A stretch of DNA of 59,011 bases, the filler included, from Basidioascus undulatus (Eukaryota): the NCBI GenBank assembly GCA_000826855.1. It is 5 parts of 5 records of this genome, joined end to end, with 100 filler letters (N's around TTAATTAATTAA, not from the genome) between each part and the next. Parts side by side here need not be neighbours in the genome. Positions count along the whole stretch, not along the records: positions 22,311 to 33,343 come from JTLS01001054.1; 4 more parts are not named here. One strand, given 5' to 3'. How positions within the stretch are numbered: the stretch's first letter is position 1; each line of letters opens with the position of its first letter. Positions 1,067-58,500 of the stretch are shown here, piece after piece. The notes under the pieces are model-generated. The model did no database searches, was not told the origin of the DNA, and was given only the letters and a program-made list of their open reading frames with translations. The translations under genes and the position numbers were made by a program.

Positions 1067-4000
1067 ATGGTCGCACCCGGCACGAGCTCGAGCCCGTGCG
1101 CCACGCCGCCGCTGCCGTACAAGCCCTACCAGGTGCGCCCCTCCTCCTTCCCTTACCCAGCTTCCTGCCCTCTAATCTAGCTCTGGGTGTGCTTGGATGG
1201 ACGGCAGAGCAAGCGACACTCGCGCTCGTTCTCGCTCCCCCCGCCCGAGCTGACGGCAGCACCTCGCTGCTCAACATCCTCCGGTCGCCTCCGCCCCGCA
1301 CGCTCTCACCCGACGCTCTCCACCACCCAGCAACAGCCGCTTTCCCCGACCCCCACTTCCGCCGGCGCCAACACCAACACGTTCCCGCGTCGTGGCGGAC
1401 CGGCATCTCGCGCCTTCTCTGCCGACGAGCTGTTCGCACCCGTGAACGACCTCGCCGCGCTCGTCCTCCCCGACCCGTCGCGCGCCAGTCCGACAGTCCA
1501 GTCCTTCGGCGAGAACGTCACCCTCCTCGGCCCGCCCCAGCCGCACTCGCCCGCCCTCTCTTCCTCCTCCCGCTCCTCCGCCGCTTCTGCTCCGCGCCCC
1601 GTGCCGCTGTCTCCCCGGCCCTCTGCGCTGTCCTCGACGCTCAGCCCCGGCCCGCATCTCCGCGAAGCACACTCGTGGGACTCGCAGTTGACGGCCAAGG
1701 GCATCGAGACTGTGCCTCTGGCGGTGCCGGATGAGGACCTCAACGCGCTCTTCGACGTTTTCCAGCGCGCGCCGGCCATTGCGGGTGGCAGCGGCGGCGG
1801 GAACGCGAGTAGCAGCGCGGCTGGGAGCCTGGCGAGCGGGGCATCGGGAGCCGCTCACAGGCGCGGCTCGTCAGCGGGGAACAGCCTCGACTCTGTGGTC
1901 CAGACGCCTTCATCCCACGGCTTCCCTGGTGACGACCCGCGCTTCGTCGTCTGGGGTGAGTACCACCCGCCGGGCGACTTGCCAATCTCCCTGGACGCGA
2001 GCGCCAGCCCGCGCATCAGCAGTCTCCGCTCGCAGCGCTCCGTCGCCGATCTCGCGCTCCCTACCTCTCCCAGCTCGCCCTCCGTACCCCCTACGACATC
2101 TCTCCCACAACGCGTCATTCTCGCCGCCACGCCATACCGCTGGATCGCGCAGCTCACGTCCGAGTTCTCGTACGATGAGTCCAACCTCTTCTTCAAGACG
2201 TACCGCCAATTCATCTCGCCCTCCGAGCTTGCGCGCGTGCTCTTTGCGCGCTGGGAGTGGACGTTCCGCGAGGAGACGGCCGCGGACGAGACGGCGCGCG
2301 CGACGGTTCGCGTCCGGACGTTCGTCATGCTCCGCTCGTGGATCTTCGTCCGGTTCGGCGAGGACTTCTTGCCGAACCGCGCGCTGCGGAAGATGCTCGG
2401 GGACTGGCTGAACCGCACGAGGCGGGATGAGAGAGTTATCGCGGCGAAGGCCGATGTGAGTGCTCGATGATATCATCTTACAACGTCATACCAAATAGGT
2501 AGCTGACGACGTTGGCTCTGGTTGAACCAGAAAATGATCAAAAAGCTGAAGGATGCCGTCAGGGAGCGACAGGCGGCGCTGGACGAGTACTGCAAAAAGA
2601 CCGGCACCGTACCCGCTCCGAACGATACCGCGCTGCCCGCCCCGAACGCGCCTACCATCTCCGTCCCAGATGGGGGTGCGGCTGACGAGCAAAGCGAGGA
2701 CGATCTGCGCGATCTCGACTTTGAGGCCATCGCGATCACCGACCTGCCTCCGCCCGCGCTCGCACTCGTCTCCGGCGGCGAGCCAACCAATCTCAACCCG
2801 GCCCTCCTCCGCACATACGCCGAGAACGCCCCTGGGACCCCGCCCAGCTTGTCCCGCGCGTTCGCGTCTACGCTCGGCAAGGTCAGCAGGATGAAGCGCC
2901 GGATCCTCAGCACGCGGCCGCCGGCTGCAGCTGAGGAGCCGTCCACGACGAGGGCGGAGGCCGAGGCCGAGAAGGGTGCGGTCGAGGGCGAGACGAGCGT
3001 CGTCTACGTGCGCGGGGGGCTCGACGGCTTCCTCCGGCTCCAGGGCATCATCCGCGATAGGCCGACGGACGATAGCGCCGGAACGCCCGGCCGACCGAGG
3101 ACACCGCCGCACGGCGAAGCGGACAACACGCCTCGTCCGCCCGCATCCCCGGTAACTAACGCGCTCGATGCGACCAGCCCGACGCTCGACCGCGCTGCAA
3201 CGCGTAGGAGCCTCGCTGCCTCCTCCCGCCGGTCATACCTCTCCGGCGGAATGTGCCAGCTCGACGACATCGACTCCGACGACGACCTCTCAATTGCCGC
3301 TCCGCGCATGCGCCGCTTTCCGCCCCGCGGCGATGGGGGCACGCACGACCACCGTCCGTTCAGCTACGCGGACTCCATGCGCTCTGGTAGCCCGTCGGTC
3401 GAGTCTGTCCGCCCGCAGTCGGACGAGGAGGACTACAGCGGCTCGGAGGACGACGAGCGGTACGAAGGCGAACTGCCGCTCATCGATAACTTCGTGCTCG
3501 ACGGTCTGGAAAGCGACGACGACGACAAGGGCGACGTCGAGGCCGCGCTCCGTGCGCTGGAGGGCCACATCGACGAGGCGAAGCAGGCGGAACGGGCGCG
3601 CAGAGTCGAGATGATGCTCGAGAAGAGCCGGTACATCTCTCCTTCTGTACCAAGCGGCGGTCCCCCAGCAATCACTGGCTGACGTCTCGTTCTGCGATTA
3701 TCGTTTTACAGTCAAATGGGCTCGGGTCGCGCGTCCAACTCGTCCGCGACGTACAACTCTAACTCGATCAAGTCGATCCAAGAAGAGGGCGCCGAATCCG
3801 AAGCGGCTCCTCGACTGTCGTACGAGACCCGCGCGTCGTCCGCCGCTGCGTCCTCCTCCGCGGCCGCTCTAGCTCGCTCTCCCTCGGAGAACGAGCGCCC
3901 GTCATCGTCGCTGAGCAAGAAGTCGTCGCTCATCCTCCCGAGCCTTCACCGGCGCGGCGCGTCACAAGATTCCCAGCGGCGTCCTCCATCAACGGACAGC

Positions 4001-5426
4001 GTCCGCTTCGCCTCCTCCGCGGCCAACTCGCCAGTCTTGGCGAACGCGACACCCGTGGCGACACTCTCGCGCAAGTCGTCTATGGGCCGCCTCAAGAGCG
4101 TCCTCATCCGCGCGCCTGCGCCCGCGAAGCGGTCCTGGCTCCTCCGGTACAAGACAAACGTCCTCGCGAGGCAGTTTGCGCTCATCGAGCGCGACTTGTT
4201 CTTGCTCTTGAAGGAGGCGGACTTGAGCGCCGAGGAGGCGTGGCGGAGTGCCGACACCGTCGGGTATCTTGCTTGGGAGGACTACACCAAGGTTCGTTGC
4301 GTCACAATTCTTGTCTTCAATCTCGAACGTTCCCTTATTGACAAGTCTTGTGGGTTATAGGATCTGGCGCGCCGCAGGGCTGCGACGCACAACAGCGACC
4401 CCGGTGGGACGCTTCGTTCCATCGTCGCTCGCTTCAACATGACCGTTCGCTGGACGGTGTCGGAGGCCCTCTTGTCCGAGGGGATCGAAGAGCGCGCTGC
4501 GGTCATCGCCAAGCTTGTTCGACTGGCATTCGTGCGTTGTTGGTCTCCTTTCGTCCGTTTGTCGCACACTCGCTCATGGTTGCGACGACGTTCTGCAGAA
4601 GTGCCACCAGCTGCGCAACTTCATGACTATGACGGCGATCGTGATGGGTGCGTCCTGACTGGCGATCTCCTGAGTTAAAGGCGTCGCGCTGACCTCTTGG
4701 TGCAGGGCTCGACATTCCGGCCGTCAAGAACCAACCTCTCGTCTGGAACGCCGTGCCCAAGCAGCAGCTCCGCATGCTGGTACGTCGCCTGACTGCATGT
4801 CTTGCTCTCTAGCGCCGAAAGCTGACGCGTTGCTGCTTACAGGGCGGTCTCAAGCGCCTGGTGTCGCCCGAAGACAACTTCCGGCTGCTGCGGTCCACGT
4901 GCGCTGCCATCCTCACTCACAACAGCGCCATCCTCGCCAGCCAGACGCGGCCCGCGGCTTCCACGGGCGAGGCGTCAGCGGACGGCGCGGCGGACAAGGA
5001 GGAGAAGCGGAAGGCGAACCGCGAGCGGTCCGCCAGCAACGCACTCGGTACCGTGCACGGCGCTATTCCCTTCTTTGGTGCGTCCAGTTTCGTTCCAACT
5101 CAAGACTTCAAGGACCAGCGCTGACGACATACCACAACTTCCTAGGCCTCTTCGTCCGCGACATCGCCTCCGCGATCGACCTGCCCGACCAGGTTCAGTC
5201 CTCGGAGCACCTTGCGCCGGCGATGGCGTCCACGCTACCCGAGCTTCCCTCATCGGTGCGCGCGACCGAGCCGCTCGTGAACGTACACAAGTTGCGCCTG
5301 CGCGATAACGCTCTCCGGAATGTGCACGAGTTCCAGCAGACCGCGTACTTTGTGATGGGCGAGCCGGAGGGCGAGGTCTTCCGCCGGTGCTTGAAGCTGC
5401 GCGTCGAGCCCATTGCATTCCAATGA
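1067..5426 (+). CDS. Ras-family guanine-nucleotide exchange factor (REM + Cdc25-type RasGEF domain, Lte1-like architecture), multi-exon; start uncertain
   Basis: REM-like segment FFKTYRQFISPSELARVLFARWEW...VRTFVMLRSWIFVRFGEDF, a long low-complexity middle, then RasGEF motifs LARQFALIERDLF, RAAVIAKLVRLA, GAIPFFG/LFVRDI and LVNVHKLR. Canonical introns join the ORF pieces. Confidence 0.85.
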
Positions 5427-8349
5427 GCGCGTCATCCGTGCGCGGACCCATTCCATATCCTCCATCTTTCCTTTTCCTTTCGGACTCTCGATATCCATCT
5501 GTTTTCTCCCTCTCCCGCCTTTTGGTACCCTCGCATACATGTCGCTCGTTTACCCTTTTCATCTCATCTTCACGTATGTCTATCCCACACACTCGTTGTC
5601 TCGTCTCATCCCTACCGCCCTGGTCTCTCTTTCCTACTCTCCATTTTTTCTCTCATCGGGTTGTCGCCGTCGCTATTTCTCTTGTTTTGTTGTTGCGCTT
5701 TCCGGCTTGTGTCCCAGCCGCGTACACCCCTTAACGAACGATCTTTACCCAGTCGTTATTCATCCCCTAACCGCACAGGTGCTTTACCACAATTTACCTT
5801 GCATGATATCTTCTTACATCGATATTCATATTGCGCATCGCGCAGTCTCGGCTTGAGCCTTCGCTGTTTGTCGGCACGGTTGTGTGCAGTCGAAGCGCAG
5901 CTTGCCAGGCCGCTGGACAGCTTGAGCTGGCAGGTTCTTGCCGGGTTCTGTCCTCAAACTTACCTTCGGAAACAAGCAAGGCAGGTGAGTAGGAATCAAC
6001 GGCTACACTCATAAAGCGCTATACCGCGAGTCGGTCCACGACCGTCATCGCGATTCATGATATGTGCACCTTGTTAGGATCTTTTCAGGTACTGCCAATA
6101 AGTTTCGAGTATCAAAGGCCTCATCGTGTTCGAAGAATGCCGGACTCTGTGCGTCGCGTCGAGAAATGGACTGCAGTATCCCTGCACTGCAGACGGTCGG
6201 TCGACTTCCACCGTGCGACGTTTGTTACGCCTGTGCAGGCCGTTCTTGTTTAGTGCTTTTACGATATACTGTTTCTGAGTGCTATTACTTTCAGAGAGGA
6301 GTCTCCTCAACCCCTATATGGGGGCGAGCGAAGATGCGGGATGTGTCATTCCGCATGCGGCAGAAGAAAGGCAGAGCGCGACTTCCTGTCCACCGGTTAT
6401 ATTCCTTTGGCTCTGTCTTCTTCCTTCATCACCGTCTCATACTCTTCCCCCATTGCTTCAACACTTCGATGGCAGCATCCAAAACAGCCTCGAAAGTATC
6501 GACCAAGCGTTCACCTTACTCCGAAATGCAAAGGCCTTCGACACTGTCCAAGTTCCTGGCGTGTTCTGTTCTCCTTGCCAATGTTCGCATTTTCTGCCCC
6601 AAACAAGAGATCCGGTCGCTCACTCTATCTTCCCAGCCCTACATTCAGTACCGCTACCTCCTCACCTCGCCTGCTGCCGCGGCGCAGGCGCTCAGCCCCG
6701 TGGGGGTGCCTCGCCGAGCAAGCGAGCCGCTTGCAGAGAGCACGCTAGGGGCGTATTGGCTGCACTGATAGCATGCGGCTCCCTTGTTCAGGTGAGTTGT
6801 CCCATTTCTTTACTTTTGGTACAAAAGACGGTTCCATGCTGAACATTCTGTTTGTAAACCGGACAGGCTCTCACCCTCCTCGCAGCTTCGGAAGGATTCA
6901 CCGTGTCTCCGCTGATTGCTGCTCTGGGGAATAGGTAAGCCCTCGGAAGCCCTCCACGTATCCTATGAACGAGGTGAATTTTTTTGATCTACACGTGGAC
7001 TCGATACCCTCACCTTTCTGCTAGCTTGGACTCTGCCGGTGCGTTCCCCGGACCGCTCTGTAGTCATGAAGGGCGCAAACGAGGCGCCCGTACAGATTCA
7101 GGACGAGTTTCCGGCCGCTACCCACGGGATCTCTATTGCTATAGTTGCTTGTGATGTCTTACTAGTTCGGTGCGGCTGCAACGATGCTCCCAGCGCGAAA
7201 GCCTTTGCAGCGGCGGTAGGTATCCTCGCATTCAACTCACGCCGACATCTGTGGAATTTGACGTTCTCCTCCTAGGACTGTTTTCCGTTTTGCGAAACTC
7301 TAACTAGGCAGGCTATGTACTTTTCCCTTTCTTACCAATTCCCTTGCTTGCTTGCCCTGATATTGAGCCACGCATCATCTGAAGGTCCTTTTCCGAACCG
7401 GCCTCGTCATCCTCATCGGCTCGCCGCGCAATGCAGCGGCAGTTTTCGCGGGCATCTCGCTATTATTTACCGTACACGCCATCCACATTTATCAGAAGTC
7501 CCTGTAACGCAAGGCGACGTGACGGATTTCGACTTTTACGGCAATATCATAGACATCGATGCTGACTGCAGTTTGGTTAGACGAACAGTACGACGCTGCC
7601 TGGACACGGTATACGTACAGACGCGATTTATGACCCTCCCTGCTTTATATTGAGTAATCTTGCCCATTGTAATGCATTGTTGCATCAAGATTCTGCAACT
7701 CTACTTTGACCATACCGGGCTGTTGCGATTGGGACGTGTGCGTTGAGCCACGCAGGGCTCAACTAGGAGAAGAGGGCCAGAAGATGAGGACCGTGCACCT
7801 TGCCCCCTTGGATTTCTGCCTCGGCAATGTCCACAAACAACCTTATGTGCTTCCCCGCACCCACATAAAACTGCTCAACTTGTAACTGACACGACTGGTC
7901 GGTCTTCGGTCCAGACTTGACAGCCAATCGTAAGCTTCCTGCGCCGCTGGGTTGGCACTTCGGGAGCTCTGAGATATATATACTCGCTAAGACTGTCTGC
8001 ACTATGCTTAAGTCTGTGTCCCAGGCTTAGGAGGATTGGCCGTGTGACTCGATCAGGATGCTGCTGTCCCCTCGCCACTCAAACTGACATGCAGACTCGA
8101 GAATCAAGCACAGCACGCCCGGCATTCAACCATGGGTTGGAAAAAAGTCTATCATGAGGTTAGCATAAAACTCTGGGCTATTGAATACAACAATGGAAGT
8201 GAAATGCGAAAGCCCGATGAGCAGACTGCGGGGATGCAAAGGAGGGAGCGGGCCGCATCATGATGATACAATGGGGAGTCCGGGTATATGGGGTATAAGA
8301 CCAAATATTTGGGAAGTATTAACTGTTATAAAAGTGAGGAATAAATAGG

Positions 8350-9672
8350 GTGCTAGAGCCGAAGTGGGACTGGGCCACCGAGATGATGCGTTACGCCAGG
8401 GTCAGGTTGAGGAGGAGCGCGACGGCTGCTTCGGTGAAGACGAGGACGTTTCCGGCGCTAAATTTAAGGAAACTTCAGCTTCAATTTCTTCAGAAAGGTA
8501 CAAAGAACAGGGACAAGATGTACGCGTCGCGGCACACGCCGTCGGGCCCTTGCGTGAACATGCTGTCGAGGATGTCGATCAGGATGGAGACATCGAGGAC
8601 GATGCCGGTGCTGTAGGTGGAGAGTATTTAAAACGCCACTTTAAAAGGTTTTCGAACGAGGTAAGGCCCAACGTACACCCTGTCGCACCACGCGCCCGCA
8701 GCGTTCCGGACGTATTGCAGATGCAGAAGATGCAGAACAGCGAGGATGGCGGTGAGGTCGATCAGAGTGCCGGACCTGCAGGTGGTAGAAAAGGTCAGCC
8801 AGGAATGAACAGATATGAGAAGCTTGTGAGAAGCGAACGGGTTGCAGAACGTCGGGCGCACCCGCCCGCCGGGCCGTTGAGAAGCGCGAGCACGATGTCG
8901 ACGCTGACGATGAGCCCGGAGCTGGTGACCGTGAGTTGGTTCAGATGGGAGGTTGTTGGTTTGGGAGAGAATATATAGGACGCACAACCCGTCACGGCAG
9001 AGCCCGTCGGAGAGGTAGGTGTAACGCCCGTTTATGATCGTGGCGAAGATCTCGGTGCTGAGGATGTTGCCGAGGCTACGAGTGAGACGTTGACACCGTG
9101 TGAGTGTTTGACTCTGAGTGGATAGGGGAGAGGTTCAATCACATTCCGATGAACTGTCACATCCGCGTTAGAGAAGTAGCGCAGGTTGATAATGTTGACG
9201 AAGAGCTCGAGGTCGAAGGGCAGGTCGGAGCTGTGGGTGAAAGTGTCAGTGAGTCTGAAGAAGGGGAAGGAGGCAAGCCGACGCACGCGATGTTGCAGTA
9301 CCCGCCGCCGTTGCAGAGCGTAAAGTACCCAGAGAGGAAATACACGAGCACGTCGATATTTATCACATTCCCGGTGCTGTCGTAGTCGAATGTAGGGCAG
9401 GTCAGCACAGAACGCGAGAAGGCAGTTTCGGGGGTGAAGGAAGAACGCACGGGGGTCAGTGTAGATCCCGCCGCGGTCTCAGTGAAATACCCTCCGACGA
9501 CCGCGACGACCGCGTCGATGTCAATAAGCGAAAGGCCTCGCTCGGCCTGCTAGACTTGCCGCGTGCCGAAGGTCGTGCCCGGCGAGCTGGAGGTCCCGTC
9601 GGCGGTGGGGGCCGCGGTCGAGACGGCCGCGAGGGAGGCGAGGGCAGAGAGGTGGACGGCGGTGGAGCGCAT
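8350..9672 (-). pseudogene. Decayed secreted protein with about 50-aa tandem repeats
   Basis: Signal-peptide-like start MRSTAVHLSALASLAAVSTAAP and an in-frame TAG at 9552-9550 with coding-like sequence continuing past it. The motif G-x-(I/V/L)-(I/V/L)-(D/N/S)-(I/V/L)... recurs in shifting frames and is interrupted by stops. Confidence 0.55.
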
Positions 9673-10308
9673 GGTTAATGTGTGTGCTGGAGATGGGTGT
9701 CTTGAAGGTGAGCGAGGAAGGGTGTTAAGGCTTGAAGAGCTTGGGAGGCGGAGGAGGGCTGGATGAGATGGGGAAGTGGGGACGCTGCGAGCGGCCACTT
9801 TATTTGCTTCTCCCCTCGAGTGTGTTGTTGAAACTATATGTGGGGACAGACATGGTCAAATTGCCCATGGTCCAATATTAGCGAGAGCTTCAGAGACGGG
9901 GCACAAGGCGTGTTAGGGGCCAGTCTCAGTGGCCAGTCCGTGTAGACACGGACGAACAACCGCCTCGCAGTCCGGAGCCGGCCTGCCCAGAACTGCTCAT
10001 TACGGCTTAGGTTCTCCCTTCCCAGTAGCATGGACAGAAAGTACGATCGTTCAGTGATGAAAGTGGGTACGCATCGCAACGCGAGGCTGCACCGTAGCCG
10101 CACGTTTCTGCGCGCTTTTAAGACGATCCCGTTCAGTGATCATAGGAAAGACACACGCGACACGACCACAGAAGTTTTATGGTGAACGAGGGCAAGTGCC
10201 ATGCGTAACCATGAGAAGCCAGCTTCTGACAGCACGCGGAAAGGTAAGGAAAGAAGGAACCGGCAAAGTGTGCAAAGAGGAGATGTGCGTGAGGCGCGGC
10301 GAAAGGTT

Positions 10309-10660
10309 CTACCAACCGAACCAGAGGTCGATCTCTTTGGGGGTTTTCTTGCGGCCGTTAAGCGTCTGAAAGTGGGTAAAGCACTTGCGGACCTTCTTGC
10401 GGTCGTTAGCGCATCCGATGTCGTACCCCCCCCTGCCGTCACCCCAGAAGTCGGCGACGCAGTATAGCATCTCGCCGTTGAGCTTCGGGTGAATGACGAC
10501 CTTCTTGGACCCGGTCTGGCCGTTGCAGTCCCACGTCCAGATGACGGCGTCTGGACTAGGTGTGGTCCGTCTGCTGGTCGAGGAGCGCGTATACGTCGTC
10601 GCAGTCGTCCCCTTGTCAGTGTCGATGGCCACGGGCAGCAGTCAGAGAGTAGGAAGCATG
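10309..10660 (-). CDS. Possible small Cys/Trp-containing protein or relic (hypothetical)
   Basis: Protein-like ORF ...VIWTWDCNGQTGSKKVVIHPKLNGEMLYCVADFWGDGRGGYDIGCAND...LWFGW*. The nearest in-frame ATG (MLPTL) is separated from it by a TGA. No family recognised. Confidence 0.3.
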
Positions 10661-11059
10661 TTATCGAGGGCGTCAACACCGCTAAGCGGACTGCTCTTTA
10701 TCTTCTTTGCGTTTGCAAAGAATGGAAGGTGCGCCCCAAATGCCCCTGAGCGCACTCTCGTACAGCTGACGCCCATGGTCGGGGGCCTGTTCTTCCGCCA
10801 CCAGGTTCTCTCTGAGCCGCTTCTCTGACCGCGAGCTCTACCTCTCGACTCTCTCCTCGATGATTTCGATCGCGTCGGGCCGCTCTTCCCGAACTGGGCG
10901 GTTTCGTTCACTCCCTGCACATCAAAATTCGACCTGACCGGTCGAAGCTCGATTTCCGGTCGCAAGCCAGCGCGGCGAACATCACCTTCATCTCTTCCCT
11001 CACCAACCTGCGCGCAATCTCCCTAACAGACGTCAACTTCGTATACGGCCGCACATGGT

Positions 11060-11159
11060 NNNNNNNNNNNNNNNNNNNNNNNNNNNNNNNNNNNNNNNNN
11101 NNNTTAATTAATTAANNNNNNNNNNNNNNNNNNNNNNNNNNNNNNNNNNNNNNNNNNNN
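11060..11159. other. Artificial contig spacer (N44-TTAATTAATTAA-N44)
   Basis: N runs flank a linker with stops in all six frames; exactly 100 nt. Confidence 0.98.
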
Positions 11160-11190
11160 ACGTCTTAACAAACATTCAATCCTCGACAAC

Positions 11191-11524
11191 TGTCAAACCT
11201 TGCCACCTCATTTTACACTCTCACCCTTTGCTGACACACTCTCCCCCTCCCCTGTCCCATTCTCACCTGAGACCCTCTCACCCTCCCCTGTCACATTCTG
11301 TGGCTTGCCCTTCGCAGCCACAGTTACCTCTCAGTGATGCAATGCTTCTGTTAGCTATAAAAACCCCCACATACCCTCTACATGTTCTCCATCTGGTCTT
11401 GCCTTCTTGTTTTCACATTGACGTAGTCCCTGCTCTAACCTTACTCGTCTCGTAATCAACCATTGCCCTCACAAGCCCTGGGTAGCCCCCGTTGCGGTCT
11501 GTTTCACTCTGCCGGATCTTGACA
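11191..11524 (+). mobile_element. Candidate LTR or LTR relic
   Basis: Starts TGTCAA and ends TTGACA (6-bp inverted termini, TG...CA), with an internal TATAAAAA at 11356-11363. It sits at a contig edge inside CpG-poor DNA. No target-site duplication (ACAAC vs CTGAG). Confidence 0.35.
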
Positions 11525-12950
11525 CTGAGTTTGTGTTCTGGTCCCCTCATTTGAAGCCACCAGGTAACAGCCATGCCACAGGTATTAACACCTTGCTTAG
11601 TACAAATATATCTGCCCTGAAATCATCTCAAATTCTAGCTACATGGCCAATGATGCTAAGTAAAGGAGACATGCCTCTCCCTCAGGGATTTATTTGTGAT
11701 CTCCCAGTCAGTGTTGGCCTGGCAAGAGGTACATGGTACATTTCTGTGGCTTTGGTCTGTAACATTACTTAGCCTGAGGAGTGGGTTGACCATATCAAAA
11801 GGGCAAACCTTGATGTGACTGGAACTACGGAGGGGACTCCTCATGCCAGTGTATGATGTTGCTGACTTTCCAGTGCCAAAGGTACTGGACAATGTGGGAC
11901 TGCCATTGTAATCCCAAATTTCTATGCTTTTCAACCCAAATTTATAGGCCTGTCAGGGTGTGAGAATGGTGTCCTATGAGGGGGAAAGATCAAGTGATGG
12001 AATGTCCTGCCTTGACTTGTATGCACTTCATGTTACTGCATTGCTTGCTGTCTGCAGGGCACATTTCTGTTCTTTGAGATGCAAGGATGTTTCAAGGCCT
12101 TGCAGAATTTCCTTGAAGCACTTGGCATGGGAGGATTCTACTCTGCTGAACCTTGCATTACGTGAAAGGAGAGTTAAACATGCCTTAAAACAGGCTTCTT
12201 GGACTGGTCCCTCAGGCTTTTTGAGCATTATCAGCTGGAGGCTCGCACTGATGATTCTGTGGCTCACGTGCCCTGCTTGTGGCATCAGACTCAAACAGGC
12301 CATAATTAATTGTGGTGCTGGTATGGCTTTTGCTACACTGACTTTGCTTTCCGCTTCCCTGAAATAATACAGTGTTGGTGATGGCACTGCAGGTACAGGA
12401 GTGGTGCAAATCTCATATATAATGTCTTCACAATATTTAACCAAATTTGTACATGATATGAGTGTTGTTTGGCAGAGGCTTGGAGTACTCTGGTTCCTAG
12501 CTTTGCCCCAGCTCCAAAGCAATCGGACCAACAGATACTAGTGTGATGAGATATAGATTTTATCCTTCCCAAGTCCACACTGACAGCCTGTCAACACGCA
12601 AGGATCCTCCTGTGGGTGCTGGCTTGCCTTTAGTGGGTTCCCATGCATCCCATTTTGGTTTGATGCAGACAGCACAGGTGTGAGCCTGTTGTTCAACTCC
12701 CAAACATCATATTCAGTGGCATAAAAATAGTGTTTTTCCTGGACTTACCACAGGTGAGTATCAAACCTGGCATCATGAAGACAGACACCTGGCTGCCGTT
12801 GTTGTTAGTCCTGCCAAGCCTCTGGGTCAAGGCGGCAACATTATGGTGTTGCATGTTTCTTTTGTTTCAAACATAAGGAAGAAGAGCCCTATATCTTTGC
12901 AGATGTAGAGTGACATGGGTGTTGGTAGCCAAGGTTTCAGTGAGACCGCA
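11525..12950. mobile_element. CpG-depleted degenerate repeat or transposon relic
   Basis: Very few CG dinucleotides and many TG/CA compared with the CpG-rich flanking genes. Broken minus-strand ORF fragments rich in C/H/M/Q/W and stops. No RT, integrase or transposase motif recognised. Confidence 0.55.
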
Positions 12951-13228
12951 TGGCGCGCGGACGGCAGTGAGTTCACGAAAGTCCACATCCGCCTGCAATT
13001 TGTCCACATCTCGTTTCATAGTGTCATTCTGTAATTTTTGCACACAGTACCTTCATACGCATTCTCTAGAGTAGTGTTCACAATGTCCAGTGTCCCAAGT
13101 AGTTGTACGTGGAGCAAGGAGCCCGACCAACCGTTGCGTGCAACAAGCCCGCCTGATGAAGGCGCGATAAATCTTAGTTTCCCGCAACAACAACATAACT
13201 GCTCGCCGCCCACCCTCTCGACCCTCCG

Positions 13229-16200
13229 CTACTCCCCACCCCCTCCTGCGCCAGCTGCCCTCCTTCCACCCCTCCCGCCCGCAAGTCTTCGCACAAACGT
13301 CTTGCGTTGCCAATGCACGCGCATCTCCAAGCGCTGGAGCGCATCCTTCGCCTGCGAGCGGTCGATGTGTGTGCTCTTGGTGTCGACTGTTTACCGCGTT
13401 CCCATCCCAATTTCTCCCCAGTCAATTATTCGGCAGGTCACTGAGGGGAGGGAGGAAGAGAGCCAGACGACGCACCGATCTTCCCATTCACCGCCTTGAG
13501 CGTATCCATGATCTCGCCCAACACATCCCCCTCTCCTTCCCCAGCCACTCCTCTCTGCTTCCGCTCAACTCCCTCCCGCACGTAGCCTTCCACATCGCCG
13601 AGCACGACGCCGAGCATTGCCACACGCCGCGCGAGGTCGCCGTAGTCCGTCTCGGGCGTGATCGTGAACGGGCTCGGGGTTTGCCCTTCTTCGTCGGCAG
13701 CGGCAGGCGAGGCGGGGGAAGAGGGGGAGGACGAGGAGGACGTGGCGCCTTTGAGCACGCGCAGGATGGGGCGCAGGTCCGGTGGGCGGAGGTACTGCTC
13801 CTGACCGTTATCCGGCATCCGACCCAATCAGCGTGCCCCTCTCGCCACGAAAGAAAAGGAGATTGAACGGTACAGAGGCAGGAAGGAGAGTACGACGTAC
13901 GGGCTCCACGCCCCCCTCTACTCTCAGCCCGTCCAGAAAGAGTACCCAGGCCAACCACCGCCTCATCCTTCTGCACGTCTCCGTGCCTGCCGGGAAGGCC
14001 TTGACGAGTGCGAGCTGGAAGTCGGACGGGCGGCCGGTCCCGCACGGGAAGGCGCCACTGAGCGCGTAGAGCTCTGTTTCTGGGTCCGCTGAGGGGGCGG
14101 CGGTGGAGGAGGAAGGAGAGGAGAGGAGGGCACGTTCAGATGTGGCGTGCAAGACGGTTTGGAGGGGATGGGAGAGCGGGTCGAGCGAGAGGAGGAGCAG
14201 CGCTGTGAGGAGGTGTGGGAGTGTCTCGGGTGAGAGGAGATGATTCCTGTGGGTGGGGAAGAGAGGGTCGTTAGATCTGGCATTACTCTGGGAAGACGGA
14301 AGCAATGAAGGAAAGGGAAGGGAGAAACGTACTCGGCAAGCGCATCGATCACCCGCACCAGCCGTTGGATGACCCGCACCCTCAAGACGTCCCTCTCCCT
14401 TTTCTTTTCCTCCCATCCCTCCTCGTCCCCCATACCCCCATCCCCACCCATCTCCACATCCGCGCCCGCACCGTCCTCCCCCTCCTCGGCCTGCTTCTCT
14501 TCGATCAGCCTGAGCGCATCGCGTGTCGAACCGAGGCGTAGGAGAACGCCGAAGTAGGTGATGAGGGAGAAGGGCGATGTCCCGGGTGTGAGAGACGGGA
14601 TGAATGCGAGAAGGGCTGAGAGCGCTGTTGAGGCGGTGGAGGGCGTCGGGTGGAGAAGCGCTGGTAAGGGTGGGAGGAATGAGCGTTGGCCGGTACGGTG
14701 AGGGTGAAGAGATCATACCAGTCTCCAACAGCCAGAGCAAGACCGCATCCCTCTCCTGCTTCCCCACCTCTGCCCTCCCCAACGCTCGCGGGACAAGGCT
14801 CAGCAGCACCTCCAGCGCCTCCGCCTGCCCCGCCTGCACGGCCTCCCCCACAGCGCGCACGACCTTCCCGAGCTTCCCCCCGACCTCAAGCACACCCTCG
14901 AGCCCGCCCACGCCGCGCCACCCCTCCACGTCAGCCATCCTCCGCTCATCCCAAAAGCGGAACCCGCCCGCTCCGCCCCGCCGACGCTGCTCGCGTTTCT
15001 CCTGGCGCGCGGCGCGCTTGGCGCGCTTGTCGGCGCCCAAGAGGGAGTGTATCGCGTCGGACGCGCCGGGGAGGGGGGCGCCGGGGGCGGAGTGCGCAGT
15101 GGAGAGCGATTCGTCCGAGTCGGGTTCAGCTTCGGTGTCCGAGTCGGACGAAGAGACGTCAGAGGTCGGGGAAGTGGGGACGGAATTGGGTTCGTCTTTT
15201 TCGTGGTGCGCCTTGAGCTCTTCGGCCTTGAGCCGGGCCTCGGCGAGCTCGAGCCCGTCCACGCCGGTCCCGAGCTTGTCCGCCGTGCGCTTCTCGGCCA
15301 ACATCTCGTCGAGGAAGATGTTGCGTCCATTCTTGTACCCCTCGCTGGAGGTAGGGGCTGACGCAGACGCGGCCTTCTTGGGCCCGAAGAGCCCGTGCGG
15401 GTTGTAGGCTTTGGAGGGGGGAGGTGCGGCTATTCGACGAGGACGGGTGGAGGGTCCAGCGGCGGCGGTGGTGTTGCGCGTGGAGCGGCGCGGGCGCGGG
15501 GTGGGCTCGTCGGCGTCGGAGGCGTCTGAGTCCGGAAAGGAGAAGAGCGGGGAGGTCGAAGGCCCGCGGGAGGTGGAGGGCGCGGTGGTAGGTTCGGGGG
15601 CGGGTTTCCTGTTGCCCAGTCGGTCAATAGAGAGCGAGTAAGAGAGGTAGTTGGAGAGGTGGAAAGTTGCAAGAAGACACGCACTTTGACTTGAGGGAGA
15701 TGCAAAAGCCAATGTCGTCGTCTTCGCTGCTGCTCGTGTCGGAGAGATCGATCGCGCCCTTGGGCAGGTCGTCGTCGGAGAGGGTGAGGGTTCCAAACGG
15801 CTTGGTCGCAGGTGTCGAAGTCGTGGCCCTGGGAGTGTCCCCACCAAGTTGAGCATCTCCATCTCCACTCTCTTCCGACTGCAAGGAAAGGCGGGGACGC
15901 ACATCTGGGCAAGTGGACTCGGGGATCGGGCCTTGTGCTGCATCTTGCTCTGGCTCAAGCTGCGCCCGGTCGTCTTTGTCGCGGACAGTCTGCCCAAGGA
16001 CACGCTACGCTCGGGCTGGGCGCGCTCGGCGCTGGCGGCGATGATGACGCCGATGAGGTCGCCTCGCTTGGGCTTGGGCTTAGGCGTCGGCGTCGGTGTC
16101 ACGGCGCGGTCCTTGGCCGGGGACTGATGCTGGTGCCGGTGCTCCCTGCGAGTCTGTGGCGCAGGGCTAGAGGGGAGGGGCGCGGAAGAGTGCGACAACT

Positions 16201-22210: not shown

Positions 22211-22310
22211 NNNNNNNNNNNNNNNNNNNNNNNNNNNNNNNNNNNNNNNNNNNNTTAATTAATTAANNNNNNNNNNNNNNNNNNNNNNNNNNNNNNNNNN
22301 NNNNNNNNNN
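22211..22310. other. Artificial contig spacer
   Basis: N44-TTAATTAATTAA-N44. Confidence 0.98.
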
Positions 22311-30569: not shown

Positions 30570-31515
30570 GGCGATGGGAAGGTGATAGCTAAGCAGGAAG
30601 ACCACGGAAAGTGCACAACATAAGGAGGTTTATATCCCATGCATGAAGATGGGTGAAATATCGTTTGAGAACAAGGCACGTCGAGGCATGCCGCCAAATC
30701 GTATGATGAGGCACGCTCGCTTATCCCTAACCTATAGACTATCTTCCAATTCCCAGTAGTATTTAGGCTGTAATCAGGACCTGTTCGGCTTTTACCTCCG
30801 GCCGCCGTCCCGCCTTCAGGAAATGTTGGTCCACGGAGAGTCTTCGGGAGAAGTGAGCGAAACAACGACCTAGGCTCACGCAAGTTGCCGCAAAGATTTG
30901 ACCACTCATGAAAAAGGCATAACCCTCACCATTTCGCACTTCCAAAACCTCGGTTGGGTTGAAAGACGTTGAAAGACCTCCGGCCTCGAGGTATCTCTGA
31001 ATTCATATTCGTAGCTTTACGTGTAGGCGGACAAGCTGCTTGTGCAAGATGGCCATCAGGGCCGCATCCAAACAGCGGCGGCTAGCGGCCATCCATGAGC
31101 TTCAAACCCGGTTCACAGTAGTATTGTTTCCTCAATGAAGCATTTCTAATACTGAGGCAGCTTTACGGCTTTACCTTCGCATCTGAACAGATTGCCGGTC
31201 CCGCTTCCTGCTCATAAGAGTTCGACTCGCCCTCTGGTCCGCCCTTCACGGCCCACCTGCACCCCCCCTAACCGGGACAATCAACCTGATGGAGTTCCGC
31301 CCCAAATACTCCCTGTATGGATTGGAATCAGCAGCAAAGAACTTCAGCAAACGGGCGATTTCGAGGGCGTGGGTGCACAGACTCAATCGCGATGCTGTCG
31401 GCAAGGCTGAAGCGTGTCTGGAGGACGAGGTCAAAATAAACTGTGGCAGTCTGCAATATAATAGGCTGAACTTGTACTGCGACCGTAATGCACGCTTGTT
31501 ATTGGGTAAAGGTGC

Positions 31516-31520
31516 AAAAA
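31516..31520 (-). terminator. RNA polymerase III terminator (T5)
   Basis: TTTTT one nucleotide after position 37 of the tRNA 5' half. Confidence 0.8.
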
Positions 31521-31521
31521 G

Positions 31522-31594
31522 TCGTAGTCAGATACTCTACCATTGAGCCAGCCGGCCTTGACCGACGCAGGGATCGAACCTGCAACCCCCTGAT
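31522..31594 (-). tRNA. tRNA-Arg(ACG): Circularly permuted tRNA-Arg(ACG): 3' half 31594-31559, then 5' half 31557-31522
   Basis: The minus strand reads A TCAGG GGGTT GCAGG TTCGATC CCTGC GTCGGTC A - A - GGCCGGC TG GCTC AATGGTA GAGT A TCTGA CT ACG A. Reordered, it gives a 72-nt cloverleaf with all four stems paired (Watson-Crick or G-U). Confidence 0.88.
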
Positions 31595-31604
31595 CCCGAC
31601 TTAA

Positions 31605-31652
31605 CCACTAGGCTAACGAAGGGGTTGAAGACGGCTGACAAAATGTATTATA
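31605..31652 (-). promoter_or_regulatory. Putative Pol III promoter of the permuted tRNA: TATA-like box, CAA, upstream A-box
   Basis: TATAATA at 31652-31646, CAA at 31627-31625, and TAGCCTAGTGG at 31615-31605 (fits TRGCNNARYGG), upstream of the B-box GGTTCGATCC at 31580-31571. Confidence 0.7.
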
Positions 31653-32282
31653 GGTAGGCCAGCCAGCAAGTCCAAGGCAAGCAGCAGTTGCGGTTAAAAG
31701 CGTCGAAATCAAAGGCAGCTGCCTCGATATTCCTTGAACACTGCTTCAACGAGAAATGTCAGGAAGTCCGCGCATTTGTGAAAGAAATCAACTCGCGCTA
31801 GTACCCCTGTTCTGTGTCACAGCCTCGCTTGCACGCGCGCGACGCTCTGACCCCCGACGCTCGCTCTTCGCTCCTCGCCCTTCTCTGCCGGCGCTGTCCT
31901 CATCCTCACCTCACCCTCATCACCTCCTTCTCCCCGCCGCTTACCATCGCCCTACCCTCCAGCGAAGTCCCCTTGGACCCAGCGAGCTTTGCAGTTTGTA
32001 GCGCGGTATACTCATCGGAGGTCCGTCTGTGCCTGGGCAGCTGCCGCGTCCCTCGAAACGCCCGCTCCCTGGCTCAACTGCCTCGCGCTCTGTCCCTTCC
32101 AGCCTAACCTTCGCCCTCGTCCTCGTCTCGCGCCCACTCATCCTCCCTCTTCGCCCTCAACACCCAAACATCCCCCGCCCACACTCCATTCATCCCGGCA
32201 GGTGCGAGCTCTCGCTCTCCCTTTGTCCGGCTCCGAGCCCAAGATGGCTGGCTGATATGGGAGGACGGGCGGCCGGGCAGCC

Positions 32283-33343
32283 ATGTCCGACATCCAGGAG
32301 AAGATCGCCGCCGCCCGCCGCGAGGCCGAGGGGCTCAAGGAGAAGATCAGGGCTAAGCGCGAGCAGACGGCGGATACCACTCGTGAGTAGCCGTCCTTTT
32401 GAGTTGCTGGCTGCGGGAGGGCCCACCCCGGTCGGGAGTGGATGTTCGCCTGGTCAAGCTTGCAGAGCATCTGGATCTTGCTTCTTTGCATGGGGATGGG
32501 ATATCAAGGATCCCAAATTGCATCGAGCAAGGTCTTGATGTCGAGCTGGCGCACTGACATCCCGCTCCCCAACCTTTAGTTCGCCAAATGTCCGCCGACA
32601 TCGACCCTCTCCCCCGCATCGTGATGAAGCCGCGGCGGACGCTCAAGGGCCACCTCGCCAAGATCTACGCGATGCACTGGTCCGCGGACAAGCGGCACCT
32701 CGTCTCCGCCTCGCAGGACGGCAAGCTGATTGTCTGGGATGCGTACACGACGAACAAGGTGCACGCGATCCCGCTCCGCTCGTCGTGGGTCATGACGTGC
32801 GCGTACGCGCCGTCGGGCGGCTTCGTCGCCTGCGGCGGCCTCGACAACATCTGCTCCATCTACAACCTCCGCTCCAAGGAGGGCTCCGTCAAAGTCGCGC
32901 GCGAGCTCAGCGCGCACACCGGCTATCTCTCGTGCTGTCGCTTCATCAACGACCGCCAGATCGTCACGTCCTCGGGCGACATGACGTGCATGCTGTGGGA
33001 CATCGACGCAGGCGTGAGGGTCATGGAGTTTGCCGACCACACTGGGGACGTCATGAGGTGCGTGCGCTCTCTTTCTATACACGCGAGCCATCGCGAAGAC
33101 GCAGGGCTGATCTCCTTCCTTGCCCTTTCAGCTTGTCGCTGGGCCCGAACCAGAACATTTTTGTTTCCGGTGCCTGTGACGCGACTGCGAAGATCTGGGA
33201 TATCCGGTCAGGCAAGGCCGTCCAAACCTTCACCGGCCACGAATCCGACATCAACGCTGTCCAGTGCGTTCCCTCTTTCCCCTCCGCACCTCCACCGCCC
33301 CTCTCACCCATCTCCCCGCCCACTCCCTCCCCGGTTCTTCCCG
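32283..33343 (+). CDS. GPB1: Heterotrimeric G-protein beta subunit, 3' truncated by the spacer
   Basis: [22 protein letters not shown]...[77 protein letters not shown]. Confidence 0.97.
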
Positions 33344-33443
33344 NNNNNNNNNNNNNNNNNNNNNNNNNNNNNNNNNNNNNNNNNNNNTTAATTAATTAAN
33401 NNNNNNNNNNNNNNNNNNNNNNNNNNNNNNNNNNNNNNNNNNN
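33344..33443. other. Artificial contig spacer
   Basis: N44-TTAATTAATTAA-N44. Confidence 0.98.
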
Positions 33444-38747: not shown

Positions 38748-42955
<4,208 letters not shown>

Positions 42956-44473: not shown

Positions 44474-44573
44474 NNNNNNNNNNNNNNNNNNNNNNNNNNN
44501 NNNNNNNNNNNNNNNNNTTAATTAATTAANNNNNNNNNNNNNNNNNNNNNNNNNNNNNNNNNNNNNNNNNNNN
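44474..44573. other. Artificial contig spacer
   Basis: N44-TTAATTAATTAA-N44. Confidence 0.98.
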
Positions 44574-55536: not shown

Positions 55537-58500
55537 CTAACGTCCACTGTCTGTAGAGCGCCTCCCCCCGCCCTTGCCGTCCTCCGTCGAGCCCGAGCGG
55601 NNNNNNNNNNNNNGCAAGCCTTTGATCGTGCTCGTCACCATTGCGACAACCGACGTCGGCGCGGCAAGGCTTAGCTTGTCGCTCTTGCTGCCCTCGGACG
55701 GCCGGCGCTGCTCGTCCTCTTCGGACAAGCTCGGCATGCTCCACTCGTCCGAGGTAGTATGCCGGCCCTCGGGCGAGCTCGAGCTGGCTGGCGAAAGAGT
55801 GGGGTTGTTGGGAGGGGGCGCGTTGGGCAAGCGGGTATCATCTGCGGAATGCGGTTCGTCAGGCGTTCGTAAAATGCCTGTGAATAACGCTGGGAACGTA
55901 CGTTTGATGAGGGTCTTGGCGTAATCGAGGTCGCGATAAATAGCAGAAATGGTGTTGGCCTGAGCATCAAGCTGGTAAGCTCTCCGCGGGAAAATAAGGA
56001 CACGCAGCCAGAACGTACGACACCGTCTTCCGAGCGGATCTGCTCGCCCACAAGTCGTGCTTTCTCGATGACCTTCTTGTCGGTCGTGGCGGTCTTGAGC
56101 GCCTCCGCAAGGTGTTCGACGCTATTAAAGGGTATCAGTGACTGATCGGCGCGATCAGACGCCCACAACACGCTTACGTGAGTTTGCGCACGCTCGAACC
56201 GACGCCGATGGCTTCGACGCGATCTGCGTTGAAGAACTGGTCGCCAAAGAATCTGCCGTCGACAGCCGAATTAGCCCACTAGCCATTCATGCGGAAGGCA
56301 AACGTCGGTCTCACGGTTTGATGATGGTCGGAATGCCCGCTGCATGTCGAGAGCATGTAAGCGCACCATCCGCAGTAACCGGTTCGTCAAGGCACGCACC
56401 CCGAAGGCTGGCGCCCGTCGTTCCTGCACCGCCATGGTGGCACGCAGCGTCGACTGCAAAGCAATGTCGAGGATCAGTAACGGCGGATCTCGAGTCGAGT
56501 CAACTGGTGACTCACTGCGCGGGAACAACCATCCGTGGTCGATAGACGAGATGTTGTGGATGTTCTCCGGCAGGAACTTGGCCTCCTCCTCGCTCATGCC
56601 GCCGCTCTTCTTACTCGCGAGGCGGTCGGACCAGCCCTTGCTCAAGATGGCGTACACATCGGCCTCCTGGATCGCCTCGACGATGCACGCGGTCATCGCA
56701 TCCGGGTCGCTGGTTGAGATAGAGCGCGCAACGTCAGCATCAAAGAATGGGTGGGAATAATCAGACGGATGCGCACCTGACGACGATCGAGCCAAAACCG
56801 ATGTAGACGACCTTCTTGTGCGCTTTTTGTGCCCTGTCGATGAACTCGACGAGGTCTTGCGGAGGCTGCCACTTCTTGTCGGCCGAGCTGTCCGGGTCGT
56901 CGAGGAACCAATAGCCGGTAACATGGATCCTGCGTCCCCGCAAGTCGTCAGTGCTGAGCAATGACGAGCGGTGAAAAGAGAAGACCGAGCACTCACCACT
57001 CGTACCAGTCCAGCGGCGGCGGGACGAGCGACGGGCTGAAGCAGTAGAGGAACGGGACCTTGTGCTGTTCCATCTTGTCCAGGTTCGTCGACTGCAGGCC
57101 GAGCGTTGACTTGCGCCAGCGGTTGACCTGGCCCGATATGGCGCGCCAGAAAACCTGAGGAAAAGGTTGCGTTCAGCAGTCCGCAAGGATCCCGAGGTAC
57201 CGTTCATCGTACCTGGTCAAACATGGTCTGGAGGAACGGCGGTCAAGCGTTAGCGTCAACCGTTCACCGGCTCGTTCAGCAGCTTCGATCGCCGTTCGAC
57301 ACACATAGCTCATGTACTGTGCCCGCTCCTTCGTCAGTTTCCCTGTCTACGCATCTCAACTGGGGAATCACGTACGTTGTACGACCCGCCCATCTTGTGT
57401 TCCCTGCAGCCCCGAAACCTCATTCAATTAGCCTCCTCTCTCACGTAGTCGCCCACATTCACTCACGGCACAGCAAACGCATGCGGGTACGCGCGCGTGC
57501 GCGTCCAGGGCATAGTGAAAGCGCGGTAGTACGGGATCTGGAGCGCCTCGGCGATGTGCAGGCCGCCCATCGCGCTCGGGCTCTCGATGAGGATGTCCGT
57601 GCCTTGGCATGCCTTCCACGAGCGGCAGAGGAGGTCGTCGAGCCAGGAGCGGAACTGTTTTTATCACTACAATGAGCCATACAGGCCCCGCAGCGGCGGA
57701 AACGGAGACGGAACGGACCTTCGTCAAGCCCTCTTTCATAAACGACTGTAGCCCACTACCAAGTCAGCTCCTGTTCATTAATATCGTAGAGTGGATACGC
57801 ACAAGAGTGAACATCCCGTGCTCGACACAAATGCGCATGAGTTCCGCTGGGTCTCCTCCCACGTCGCGGAACTCGATCCCGTGCTGCAATGACGCGCACC
57901 CATTCGCTCAGCCACTGCTGCAACGCTTTACAATCCAGCGAAGTTCACTCACGCCCTCGATCCAGTCCCTGTACTCCGCGTGCGTCGCGATCCGGACCTT
58001 GTGGCCCTCCGCCTTGAGGCCCTTGCACAGCGCGATGTACGGCTGGACGTCTCCGCGGCTTCCAATGGTAAGGCACGTAAAGTGCAGCGAGTCCTGCGGG
58101 CGGAACGTTACTGCCCATCCCATCCCCCACCTCATCAGCTTCCCCTTCCCTCACTCCTTCCCGACGCGCCGCATCACCCGAAGTCAACGCACCGAAGGAT
58201 GAGCTCGTCGAAGTAAACATGACGGGCGGGACTGCGTCCGCGTTCTGGGGCGGCGGGCGTGCGGCGACCTCCGGGTGGAGCGCCTCGAGCTCCTCGAGGA
58301 TCATCGCCTCGCGCTTCTCGTTGCTCGGGCGGGACTGGGCCGACGCCGCAGAGCTCTCGCGCCGGTATGCGTCCTCGAGCTGCCGGTTCAGCAGCTGCAT
58401 GCATGCGTCGCGCCGCGTCGAGGAGGTGAACTCCAGGAAGAGCTCTTCGTGGCCTGGACCCCCGACATGGTCAGATCGCCTGCTCAGATTCCTCTTCTGT

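Follow-up and report, generated by a model that had tools for sequence, protein, structure and literature searches.

Introduction

According to the available excerpts of two reviews, of 2014 and 2026 (PMC3978253, PMC13578239), eukaryotic permuted tRNA genes are confined to a few unicellular algae, in which they are thought to survive through TFIIIC-independent transcription. A tandem-duplication route to permutation has already been published (PMC3978253), and the tandem intron-containing tRNA genes of Ostreococcus lucimarinus, which are accompanied by an extra 5' half, are taken as intermediates of the duplication model (PMC3978253, PMC13578239). A search of the literature returned no report of permuted tRNA genes in fungi, basidiomycetes included.

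As described in the excerpts of PMC11724288, the recruitment of TFIIIC to yeast tRNA genes is governed by the B-box, and tauA, and through it TFIIIB, is placed by the A-box. A surrogate A-box would thus be of use. The gap between the two boxes in natural yeast tRNA genes is 31–93 bp, 32 bp being the commonest value. Helenus elements, small LTR retrotransposons of Pucciniales and some Agaricomycetes, carry a tRNA-like Pol III promoter within their LTRs, and after removal of such elements rust fungi mostly have fewer than 20 genes per tRNA type (PMC10886601, Table 2, in the part of the paper available). Here we describe a locus of Basidioascus undulatus at which a permuted tRNA-Arg(ACG) unit is preceded by a second consensus A-box. 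An earlier sequence-only reading had proposed that this leader box lets Pol III transcribe the permuted gene.

Genomic setting and architecture of the locus

The window, i.e. the whole 59,011-nt stretch of DNA that was analysed, is fungal nuclear DNA. The permuted unit is situated in an intergenic region upstream of the gene of a G-protein beta subunit, approximately 650 nt from the gene start. This gene contains introns and occupies 32256-33391 of the plus strand (first exon 32256-32390, large exon from 32588), and its product is ~90% identical to basidiomycete Gpb1/Bpp1 proteins. The best named relatives of an arrestin-like ORF of the window belong to Wallemia, Tremellomycetes and Microbotryomycetes, with 33–38% identity. 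Sequence comparison points to a host that is probably a basidiomycete without a close relative in the searched protein collection. Paired 44-N runs recur approximately every 11.1 kb (11060-11159, 22211-22310, 33344-33443, 44474-44573 and 55601-55613); they look like masks and not like assembly gaps, and one pair cuts the G-beta gene.

In the native order of the sequence ARAGORN detects no tRNA genes in the 59-kb window, and Rfam gives no match in it at the gathering score. The unit and its leader consist of the following elements.

31652-31646, minus strand: TATAATA, a TATA-like element by sequence reading, with a putative promoter function
31627-31625, minus strand: CAA, by sequence reading
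31600-31615, minus strand: D-arm-like leader segment TAGCCTAGTGGTTAAG, the first 11 nt of which match the A-box consensus
31615-31605, minus strand: leader A-box TAGCCTAGTGG, an exact match to TRGCNNARTGG
31602-31597, minus strand: AAGUCG, the 5' strand of the terminal 6-bp helix (unconstrained MFE) and the start of the repeated core (contig breaks)
31596-31559, minus strand: 3' half of the tRNA (from ARAGORN applied to the joined halves and from a YrlA alignment below threshold)
31596-31594, minus strand, within the 3' half: loop nucleotides GGA, A31594 being position 38
within the 3' half, minus strand: 3' strand of the anticodon stem, variable loop GGGTT and T arm
31580-31571, minus strand: B-box GGTTCGATCC, listed also as GGTTCGATCCC at 31580-31570
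31566-31560, minus strand: 3' strand of the acceptor stem, GTCGGTC, with the discriminator A at 31559
31558, minus strand: single spacer A between the discriminator A73 and G1
31557-31522, minus strand: 5' half of the tRNA, beginning with the acceptor strand GGCCGGC and continuing with the D arm (ARAGORN)
31550-31540, minus strand: the tRNA's own (internal) A-box TGGCTCAATGG, within the D arm of the 5' half
31525-31523, minus strand: anticodon ACG, with A37 at 31522, in the loop after the 5' strand of the anticodon stem
31524-31519, minus strand: CGACUU, the 3' strand of the terminal helix (unconstrained MFE)
31520-31516, minus strand: T5, a Pol III terminator-like end of the core, overlapping the CGACUU strand

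Along the minus strand the leader is followed by the 3' strand of the anticodon stem, the variable loop, the T arm, GTCGGTC and AA, and then by GGCCGGC, the D arm, the 5' strand of the anticodon stem, CUACGA, C and T5. The 3' half precedes the 5' half on one strand and the two meet at their acceptor ends, which is the layout of a permuted tRNA gene; the intervening sequence amounts to 1 nt, or to 2 nt with the discriminator included. The rejoined halves are recognized by ARAGORN as a canonical 72-nt tRNA-Arg(ACG) with all four junction choices that give a 7-nt loop. Its acceptor stem is formed by 7 pairs between GGCCGGC and GTCGGTC (two of them G-U, according to the ARAGORN drawing), and the T stem by 5 perfect pairs. 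From the TATA-like element to the start of the core (31602) there are 50 nt, and the downstream T-stretch, T5, adjoins the terminal helix directly. Every motif named by the sequence-only reading is found on the minus strand at the place assigned to it, and the internal A-box is indeed located downstream of the B-box. Other pieces of the permuted unit were sought within the window and none were found, and predicted proteins reading through the unit, considered as a route to further copies, yielded no candidate.

In the unconstrained MFE structure of 31604-31516 the ends are held together by the 6-bp helix AAGUCG/CGACUU, which is separated from the anticodon stem by a 3x3 internal loop (GGA/CUA). 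The repeated core described below starts and ends exactly with this terminal helix. Direct reading in the strict bulge-helix-bulge register gives three of the four pairs of the central helix, with U33 facing C31598. The same reading allows C32 to pair with G31597, which stands three nucleotides ahead of the 3' site; an anticodon-intron pair of this C32 type is the one used by eukaryotic endonucleases. A ligated circle would hold one spacer A besides the discriminator, which would result in a 2-nt loop on the acceptor stem. The MFE of the presumed 115-nt transcript is uninformative (z = -0.05).

The unit as a dispersed repeat

DNA contigs of three data sets (X1, X2 and X3) were matched to positions 31450-31700 at a likeness of at least 80%. 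The repeated core revealed by X1 and X2 comprises 31602-31513 and has sharp limits at 31602/31601, where loose ends and contig breaks mark its start, and at the T-run. In two DNA data sets the summed contig depth of the unit is 70–270 times that of the flanks. For X1 it equals 17.5 up to 31512, 1472 in the bin 31513-31521 and 1263–4845 across the unit, and at the core start it drops from 1263 to ~17 at 31602 (16.9 from 31603). The steps in X2 are alike, with 38–47 in the flanks and 2772–15056 in the unit. Each of X1 and X2 contains 55 matching contigs, 37 of which are at least 99% alike. In 13 X1 contigs the sequence diverges from the window at 31513-31516, just past the T-run, and their downstream flanks are unrelated.

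Contigs belonging to the locus itself end within the unit (31542 and 31572), which is expected of a repeat. The permuted arrangement is real and not an assembly artefact, because the junction is spanned by unitigs (31533-31588, no differences, depth 175; 31536-31588, one difference, depth 298) and further copies exist on other contigs, among them another full copy on a 4.2-kb contig (31516-31595, 6 differences in 80 nt). The arrangement is present at no fewer than 14 loci. The summed depth suggests 70–120 junction copies, and since this value is inflated by overlapping unitigs the copy number is stated here as tens. Halves in the normal order do not occur on any X1 or X2 contig, which is a weak negative since k=31 contigs break within repeats.

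The conserved core consists of the permuted tRNA only, with the B-box before the A-box and a T-run at the end. It shares with tRNA-derived SINEs the presence of many dispersed copies (55 contigs, at least 13 of them with unrelated downstream flanks in X1) and lacks their body plan, i.e. an A-then-B head, a body unrelated to tRNA and a tail that is A-rich or LINE-like. The junction unitig without differences ends beside 31532 and 31589, the partners of the 27:43 pair; therefore, copies seem to differ at both positions. This pair exists only in the tRNA fold, and if the changes are compensatory they would argue for selection on the fold.

The leader A-box

Both strands of the 59-kb window were scanned with the A-box consensus TRGCNNARTGG (the A-box-type pattern is also written TRGYNNANNNGG), which gave three matches, against an expectation of 1.46 by shuffling. 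Of these, two lie on either side of the window's only B-box match (GGTTCGANNCC), on its strand. The third match, at 42292, belongs to GC-rich coding-like sequence without tRNA features and was rejected as chance. By our own arithmetic the chance of the leader A-box is ~1.2e-5 per position and ~7e-4 per 60-nt upstream stretch. The TATAATA element occurs four times on the two strands of the window (~2e-3 per 60-nt stretch) and does not fit the stricter TATAWAW pattern; it lies 31 nt upstream of the leader A-box, 37 nt start to start.

The second consensus A-box that had been claimed upstream of the B-box is confirmed from the sequence, the starts of the two boxes being 35 nt apart with 24 nt between them. 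The leader box precedes the B-box on the transcribed strand, in the order of a type-2 promoter, and the 24-bp gap falls outside the 31–93 bp natural to yeast (PMC11724288, in excerpt). A Pol III start near 31622-31630 would suit both the TATA-like element and the leader A-box. It is improbable that transcription will prove to require the latter.

The earlier suggestion that the leader is a remnant of a D arm is judged the best reading of this segment. The motif is non-random and stands in the correct order before the B-box. As was also pointed out, the would-be acceptor strand CCTTCGT makes no Watson-Crick pair with GTCGGTC when the two are read directly. At this locus the leader ends with GGTTAAG, followed by TCG and the 3' half. 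It has no measurable similarity to the unit's own 5' half in shuffle-controlled local alignment (p = 0.2 to 1.0). Segments of 19, 39 and 79 nt upstream and of 79 nt downstream were aligned to the unit with the same control, and because these local alignments were not significant (p = 0.2 to 1.0) the idea of a whole decayed unit upstream at the locus was dropped. Directly 5' of the leader remnant, TTCAACCCCTTCGT (31616-31629, minus strand) is identical at 11 of 14 positions to TTCGATCCCTGCGT, the T loop plus the T-stem 3' strand of the unit; this likeness has p = 0.21 on shuffling and is not colinear with a whole upstream unit.

Leaders of other copies and a proposed origin of the family

The leader A-box and the element resembling a TATA box lie outside the repeated core and have single-copy depth (14.8–16.9 in X1, 31603-31629). 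The same leader, which the sequence-only reading had advised looking for at other permuted loci, is not shared by any other copy at 80% likeness or above, but a D-arm-like remnant is present in two of the three readable upstream contexts and ends there at the same base as at our locus. One of these contexts is a class of three contigs (consensus agreement ~0.6) with ...TTTAATCAATYGGT (...TCAATYGGT) directly before the unit's first AG. Apart from one extra base, this leader shares 10 of 11 positions with TCAAT-GGTAG, the D loop of the unit itself; when it is viewed as an A-box, G10 and C11, the two most conserved positions, are gone from it. The other is a 93-nt X3 unitig (matched to 31537-31595), whose first and last 30 nt are identical, which means a tandem period of 63 nt. 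In this form the unit's own intact A-box has GGTAG as its end, is separated by 4 nt from the 3' half and stands 34 nt before the B-box. The order is 3' half, AA, 5' acceptor strand, D arm to GGTAG and 4 nt. It would be a tRNA-derived satellite-like variant of the unit; it was not flagged in X1 or X2. The third context is a copy truncated at 31589 and has no D-arm-like motif.

The proposed origin of the gene from a tandem tRNA pair is supported at the level of the family, where it fits the tandem form and the D-arm-like leaders of other copies, but not at this locus. This locus is an unlikely birthplace of the permutation because the multi-copy core excludes the leader, which no other contig shares at 80% likeness or above. 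The data fit a family that began as a head-to-tail arrangement, with the upstream 5' half truncated past the D loop. Sequence change is far faster in the remnant than in the core. The retained promoter box, the fungal host, the copy number and the 1-2-nt spacer are new elements; relative to the published tandem-duplication route, only the idea of a retained A-box is new.

Discussion

The explanation that we prefer, whose probability comes close to even, is that the locus belongs to a dispersed family of permuted tRNA-Arg(ACG) genes with tens of copies, that its leader is a vestigial D arm and that the unit makes a tRNA. Each unit would consist of the 3' half, one spacer A and the 5' half, with the 6-bp end helix closing it and the T-run ending it. 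The leader A-box would be what remains of the D arm once borne by an upstream 5' half, now truncated, of a head-to-tail ancestral element; at this locus the putative vestige still fits the A-box consensus, 24 bp before the B-box and with the TATA-like element 31 nt further up. TFIIIC would anchor on the B-box and TFIIIB would owe its position to the TATA-like element, with at most some help from the vestigial A-box. Pol III is predicted to start near 31622-31630 and to stop in the T5 run. The ends of the transcript would then pair, the tRNA splicing endonuclease would cut at the sites equivalent to 37/38, tRNA ligase would close the circle, and RNase P together with 3' trimming would open it at the acceptor stem.

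This explanation is supported by the order of the motifs, the tRNA with intact stems, the terminal helix, the depth of the family, the D-arm-like leaders and the lack of a normal-order X1 or X2 contig; by analogy, the upstream TATA-like element and the T-stretch may also be counted, as they resemble those of algal permuted genes (PMC3978253, in excerpt). It is opposed by the position of the leader outside the core, by the one context of three without the motif, by the three-contig class without G10 and C11, by the 24-bp gap below the yeast range, by the 1-nt spacer, by a central helix with three of four pairs in the strict bulge-helix-bulge register, and by the lack of significant similarity between leader and unit. 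With its tens of copies and its truncated and tandem variants the family resembles a selfish repeat more than the normal tRNA family of a fungus. It is a realistic possibility, though we consider it distinctly short of probable, that the units are a non-functional or selfish tRNA-derived repeat making no working tRNA and that both leader A-box and TATA-like element are neutral relics or coincidences of the flank. Such a repeat could stem from a retro-copied Pol III transcript or from dispersal of the 63-nt tandem array. The depth of 70–270 times the flanks, the existence of truncated and tandem forms and the single-copy leader agree with it, as does a core that runs from a purine (A31602/A31601) to a T-run like a copied Pol III transcript; the 1-nt spacer would be awkward for RNase P and for 3'-end processing, and multi-copy tRNA-like mobile elements are known in basidiomycetes (PMC10886601, in excerpt). 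However, this copy keeps all stems and, by our own reading of the sequence, the usual invariant bases, and 37 of 55 contigs that are at least 99% alike, with unrelated flanks up to the T-run, are the pattern of selected tRNA gene families. Moreover, direct reading of this locus finds no A-rich tail, tRNA-unrelated body, TG..CA ends or target-site duplication, and a normal-order copy of the tRNA body is not seen on X1 and X2 contigs, which weighs little.

The strict version of the earlier proposal, in which the leader A-box is under selection, is indispensable alongside the B-box as part of a type-2 Pol III promoter and directs a start 12–20 nt upstream of itself, appears unlikely to us. The exact consensus match has a chance of only ~7e-4, the order of TATA-like element, A-box, B-box and T5 is correct, and the placing of tauA and TFIIIB depends on the A-box in yeast (PMC11724288, in excerpt). 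Direct reading adds that every constrained position of the A-box fits even though the 7 nt equivalent to an acceptor strand cannot pair. On the other hand, paralogous copies do not keep the motif at a likeness of 80% or more, the three-contig class has lost G10 and C11, and the gap of 24 bp is not a natural one by the yeast measure. A D arm derived from a tRNA meets the A-box consensus by descent, and therefore the match alone is no proof of selection. Still another origin of the leader, from a different tRNA gene next to which the unit was inserted, would be suggested by a leader that departs from the D arm of the unit itself at 4 of 12 positions and by a 2-nt insertion, and by its local alignment to the unit, which is not significant. 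The leader D loop AGTGGTTAA presumably resembles the long D loops of class II tRNAs. We regard this origin as very improbable: neither downstream of the unit nor elsewhere in the window is there another tRNA-like piece, B-box or T arm, and the two other copies with a D-arm-like remnant ending at the same base indicate shared ancestry and not an accidental neighbour.

Extended to the organism, the preferred explanation would mean that an early-branching basidiomycete makes its tRNA-Arg(ICG) from multi-copy permuted genes with a 1-2-nt spacer, via circular RNA and with the ordinary splicing endonuclease and ligase, a vestigial D arm before each unit having sustained TFIIIC-dependent transcription despite the inverted boxes. 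As a whole this proposition is doubtful. If the tRNA-Arg(ICG) reading is true, these are the first permuted tRNA genes outside algae and archaea. A permuted family in a fungus, where use of TFIIIC is to be expected, would directly test the idea of TFIIIC-independence (PMC3978253, PMC13578239, in excerpt), and it would offer a concrete intermediate of duplication and loss in which the upstream half is reduced to a promoter box. If the units are dead copies, they represent an undescribed kind of tRNA-derived repeat. Such repeats are missed by standard tRNA finders, as illustrated by the absence of ARAGORN genes and of Rfam matches at the gathering score.

Relation to described systems

The only Rfam match at a relaxed threshold is YrlA (RF02553), a bacterial Y-RNA-like RNA whose tRNA-like module is permuted, with 32.2 bits against a gathering score of 69, i.e. 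below membership. The two share a T arm, a closed acceptor stem and a D arm held by an end stem. In contrast to the fungal unit, the YrlA model has a part between the terminal stem and the tRNA-like module, which binds Ro and is deleted in the alignment, and the YrlA family is bacterial. We take the match as an independent sign of permuted topology; it is a resemblance of shape and not membership.

The exact 36-nt junction was found neither in prokaryote genomes nor in viral contigs. A scan of metagenomes for a T arm followed after a gap of 17–27 nt by the unit's D arm gave 116 loci, none with the fungal junction; 94 of these are ordinary tandem pairs of complete tRNA genes, and 22 are cut by contig ends or belong to other tRNA clusters. 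In five of the 116 loci (L015, L017, L050, L076 and L082) ARAGORN places neither the T arm nor the D arm in a complete tRNA. In two of them, L015 and L050, six of the 7 nt that precede the D arm can pair, as judged by eye, with the strand after the T arm. The five loci may contain prokaryotic permuted tRNA-like or Y-RNA-like modules; Rfam at the gathering score finds in them only ordinary tRNAs elsewhere in the loci.

Helenus elements (PMC10886601, in excerpt) are likewise multi-copy and tRNA-derived and inflate tRNA gene counts. Their tRNA-like part, however, is in normal order inside longer LTRs accompanied by PBS, PPT and 5-bp target-site duplications, whereas the fungal repeat is ~88 nt long, permuted and ended by a T-run, with no target-site duplication at this locus. 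With the yeast type-2 Pol III promoter (PMC11724288, in excerpt), on which tauA occupies the A-box and tauB the B-box, our locus has in common an A-box consensus 5' of a B-box consensus on the same strand, a TATA-like element further upstream and a T-run. It differs in the 24-bp gap and in the location of the A-box in a leader outside the mature RNA.

The prasinophyte green algae and the Bigelowiella nucleomorph (Maruyama et al. 2010, cited in PMC3978253 and PMC13578239) also possess nuclear eukaryotic permuted tRNA genes, in another lineage, and the available excerpts of the two reviews describe no vestigial upstream D arm or A-box for them. The closest counterparts are the permuted genes of Cyanidioschyzon merolae with the junction at 37/38 (Soma et al. 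2007; PMC3978253, in excerpt). They too have the 3' half upstream on one strand, a TATA-like element upstream, a T-stretch downstream, inverted A- and B-boxes and a leader/trailer pair beside the anticodon stem, and tandem duplication with loss of the outer halves was proposed for their origin. The fungal unit, a candidate gene, has termini arranged as helix, 3x3 loop and helix in place of a clean bulge-helix-bulge, and its intervening sequence is 1–2 nt long in comparison with 7–74 nt in the alga. In contrast to the algal genes, it resides in a fungal host in tens of dispersed near-identical copies and carries an A-box-like remnant before the B-box.
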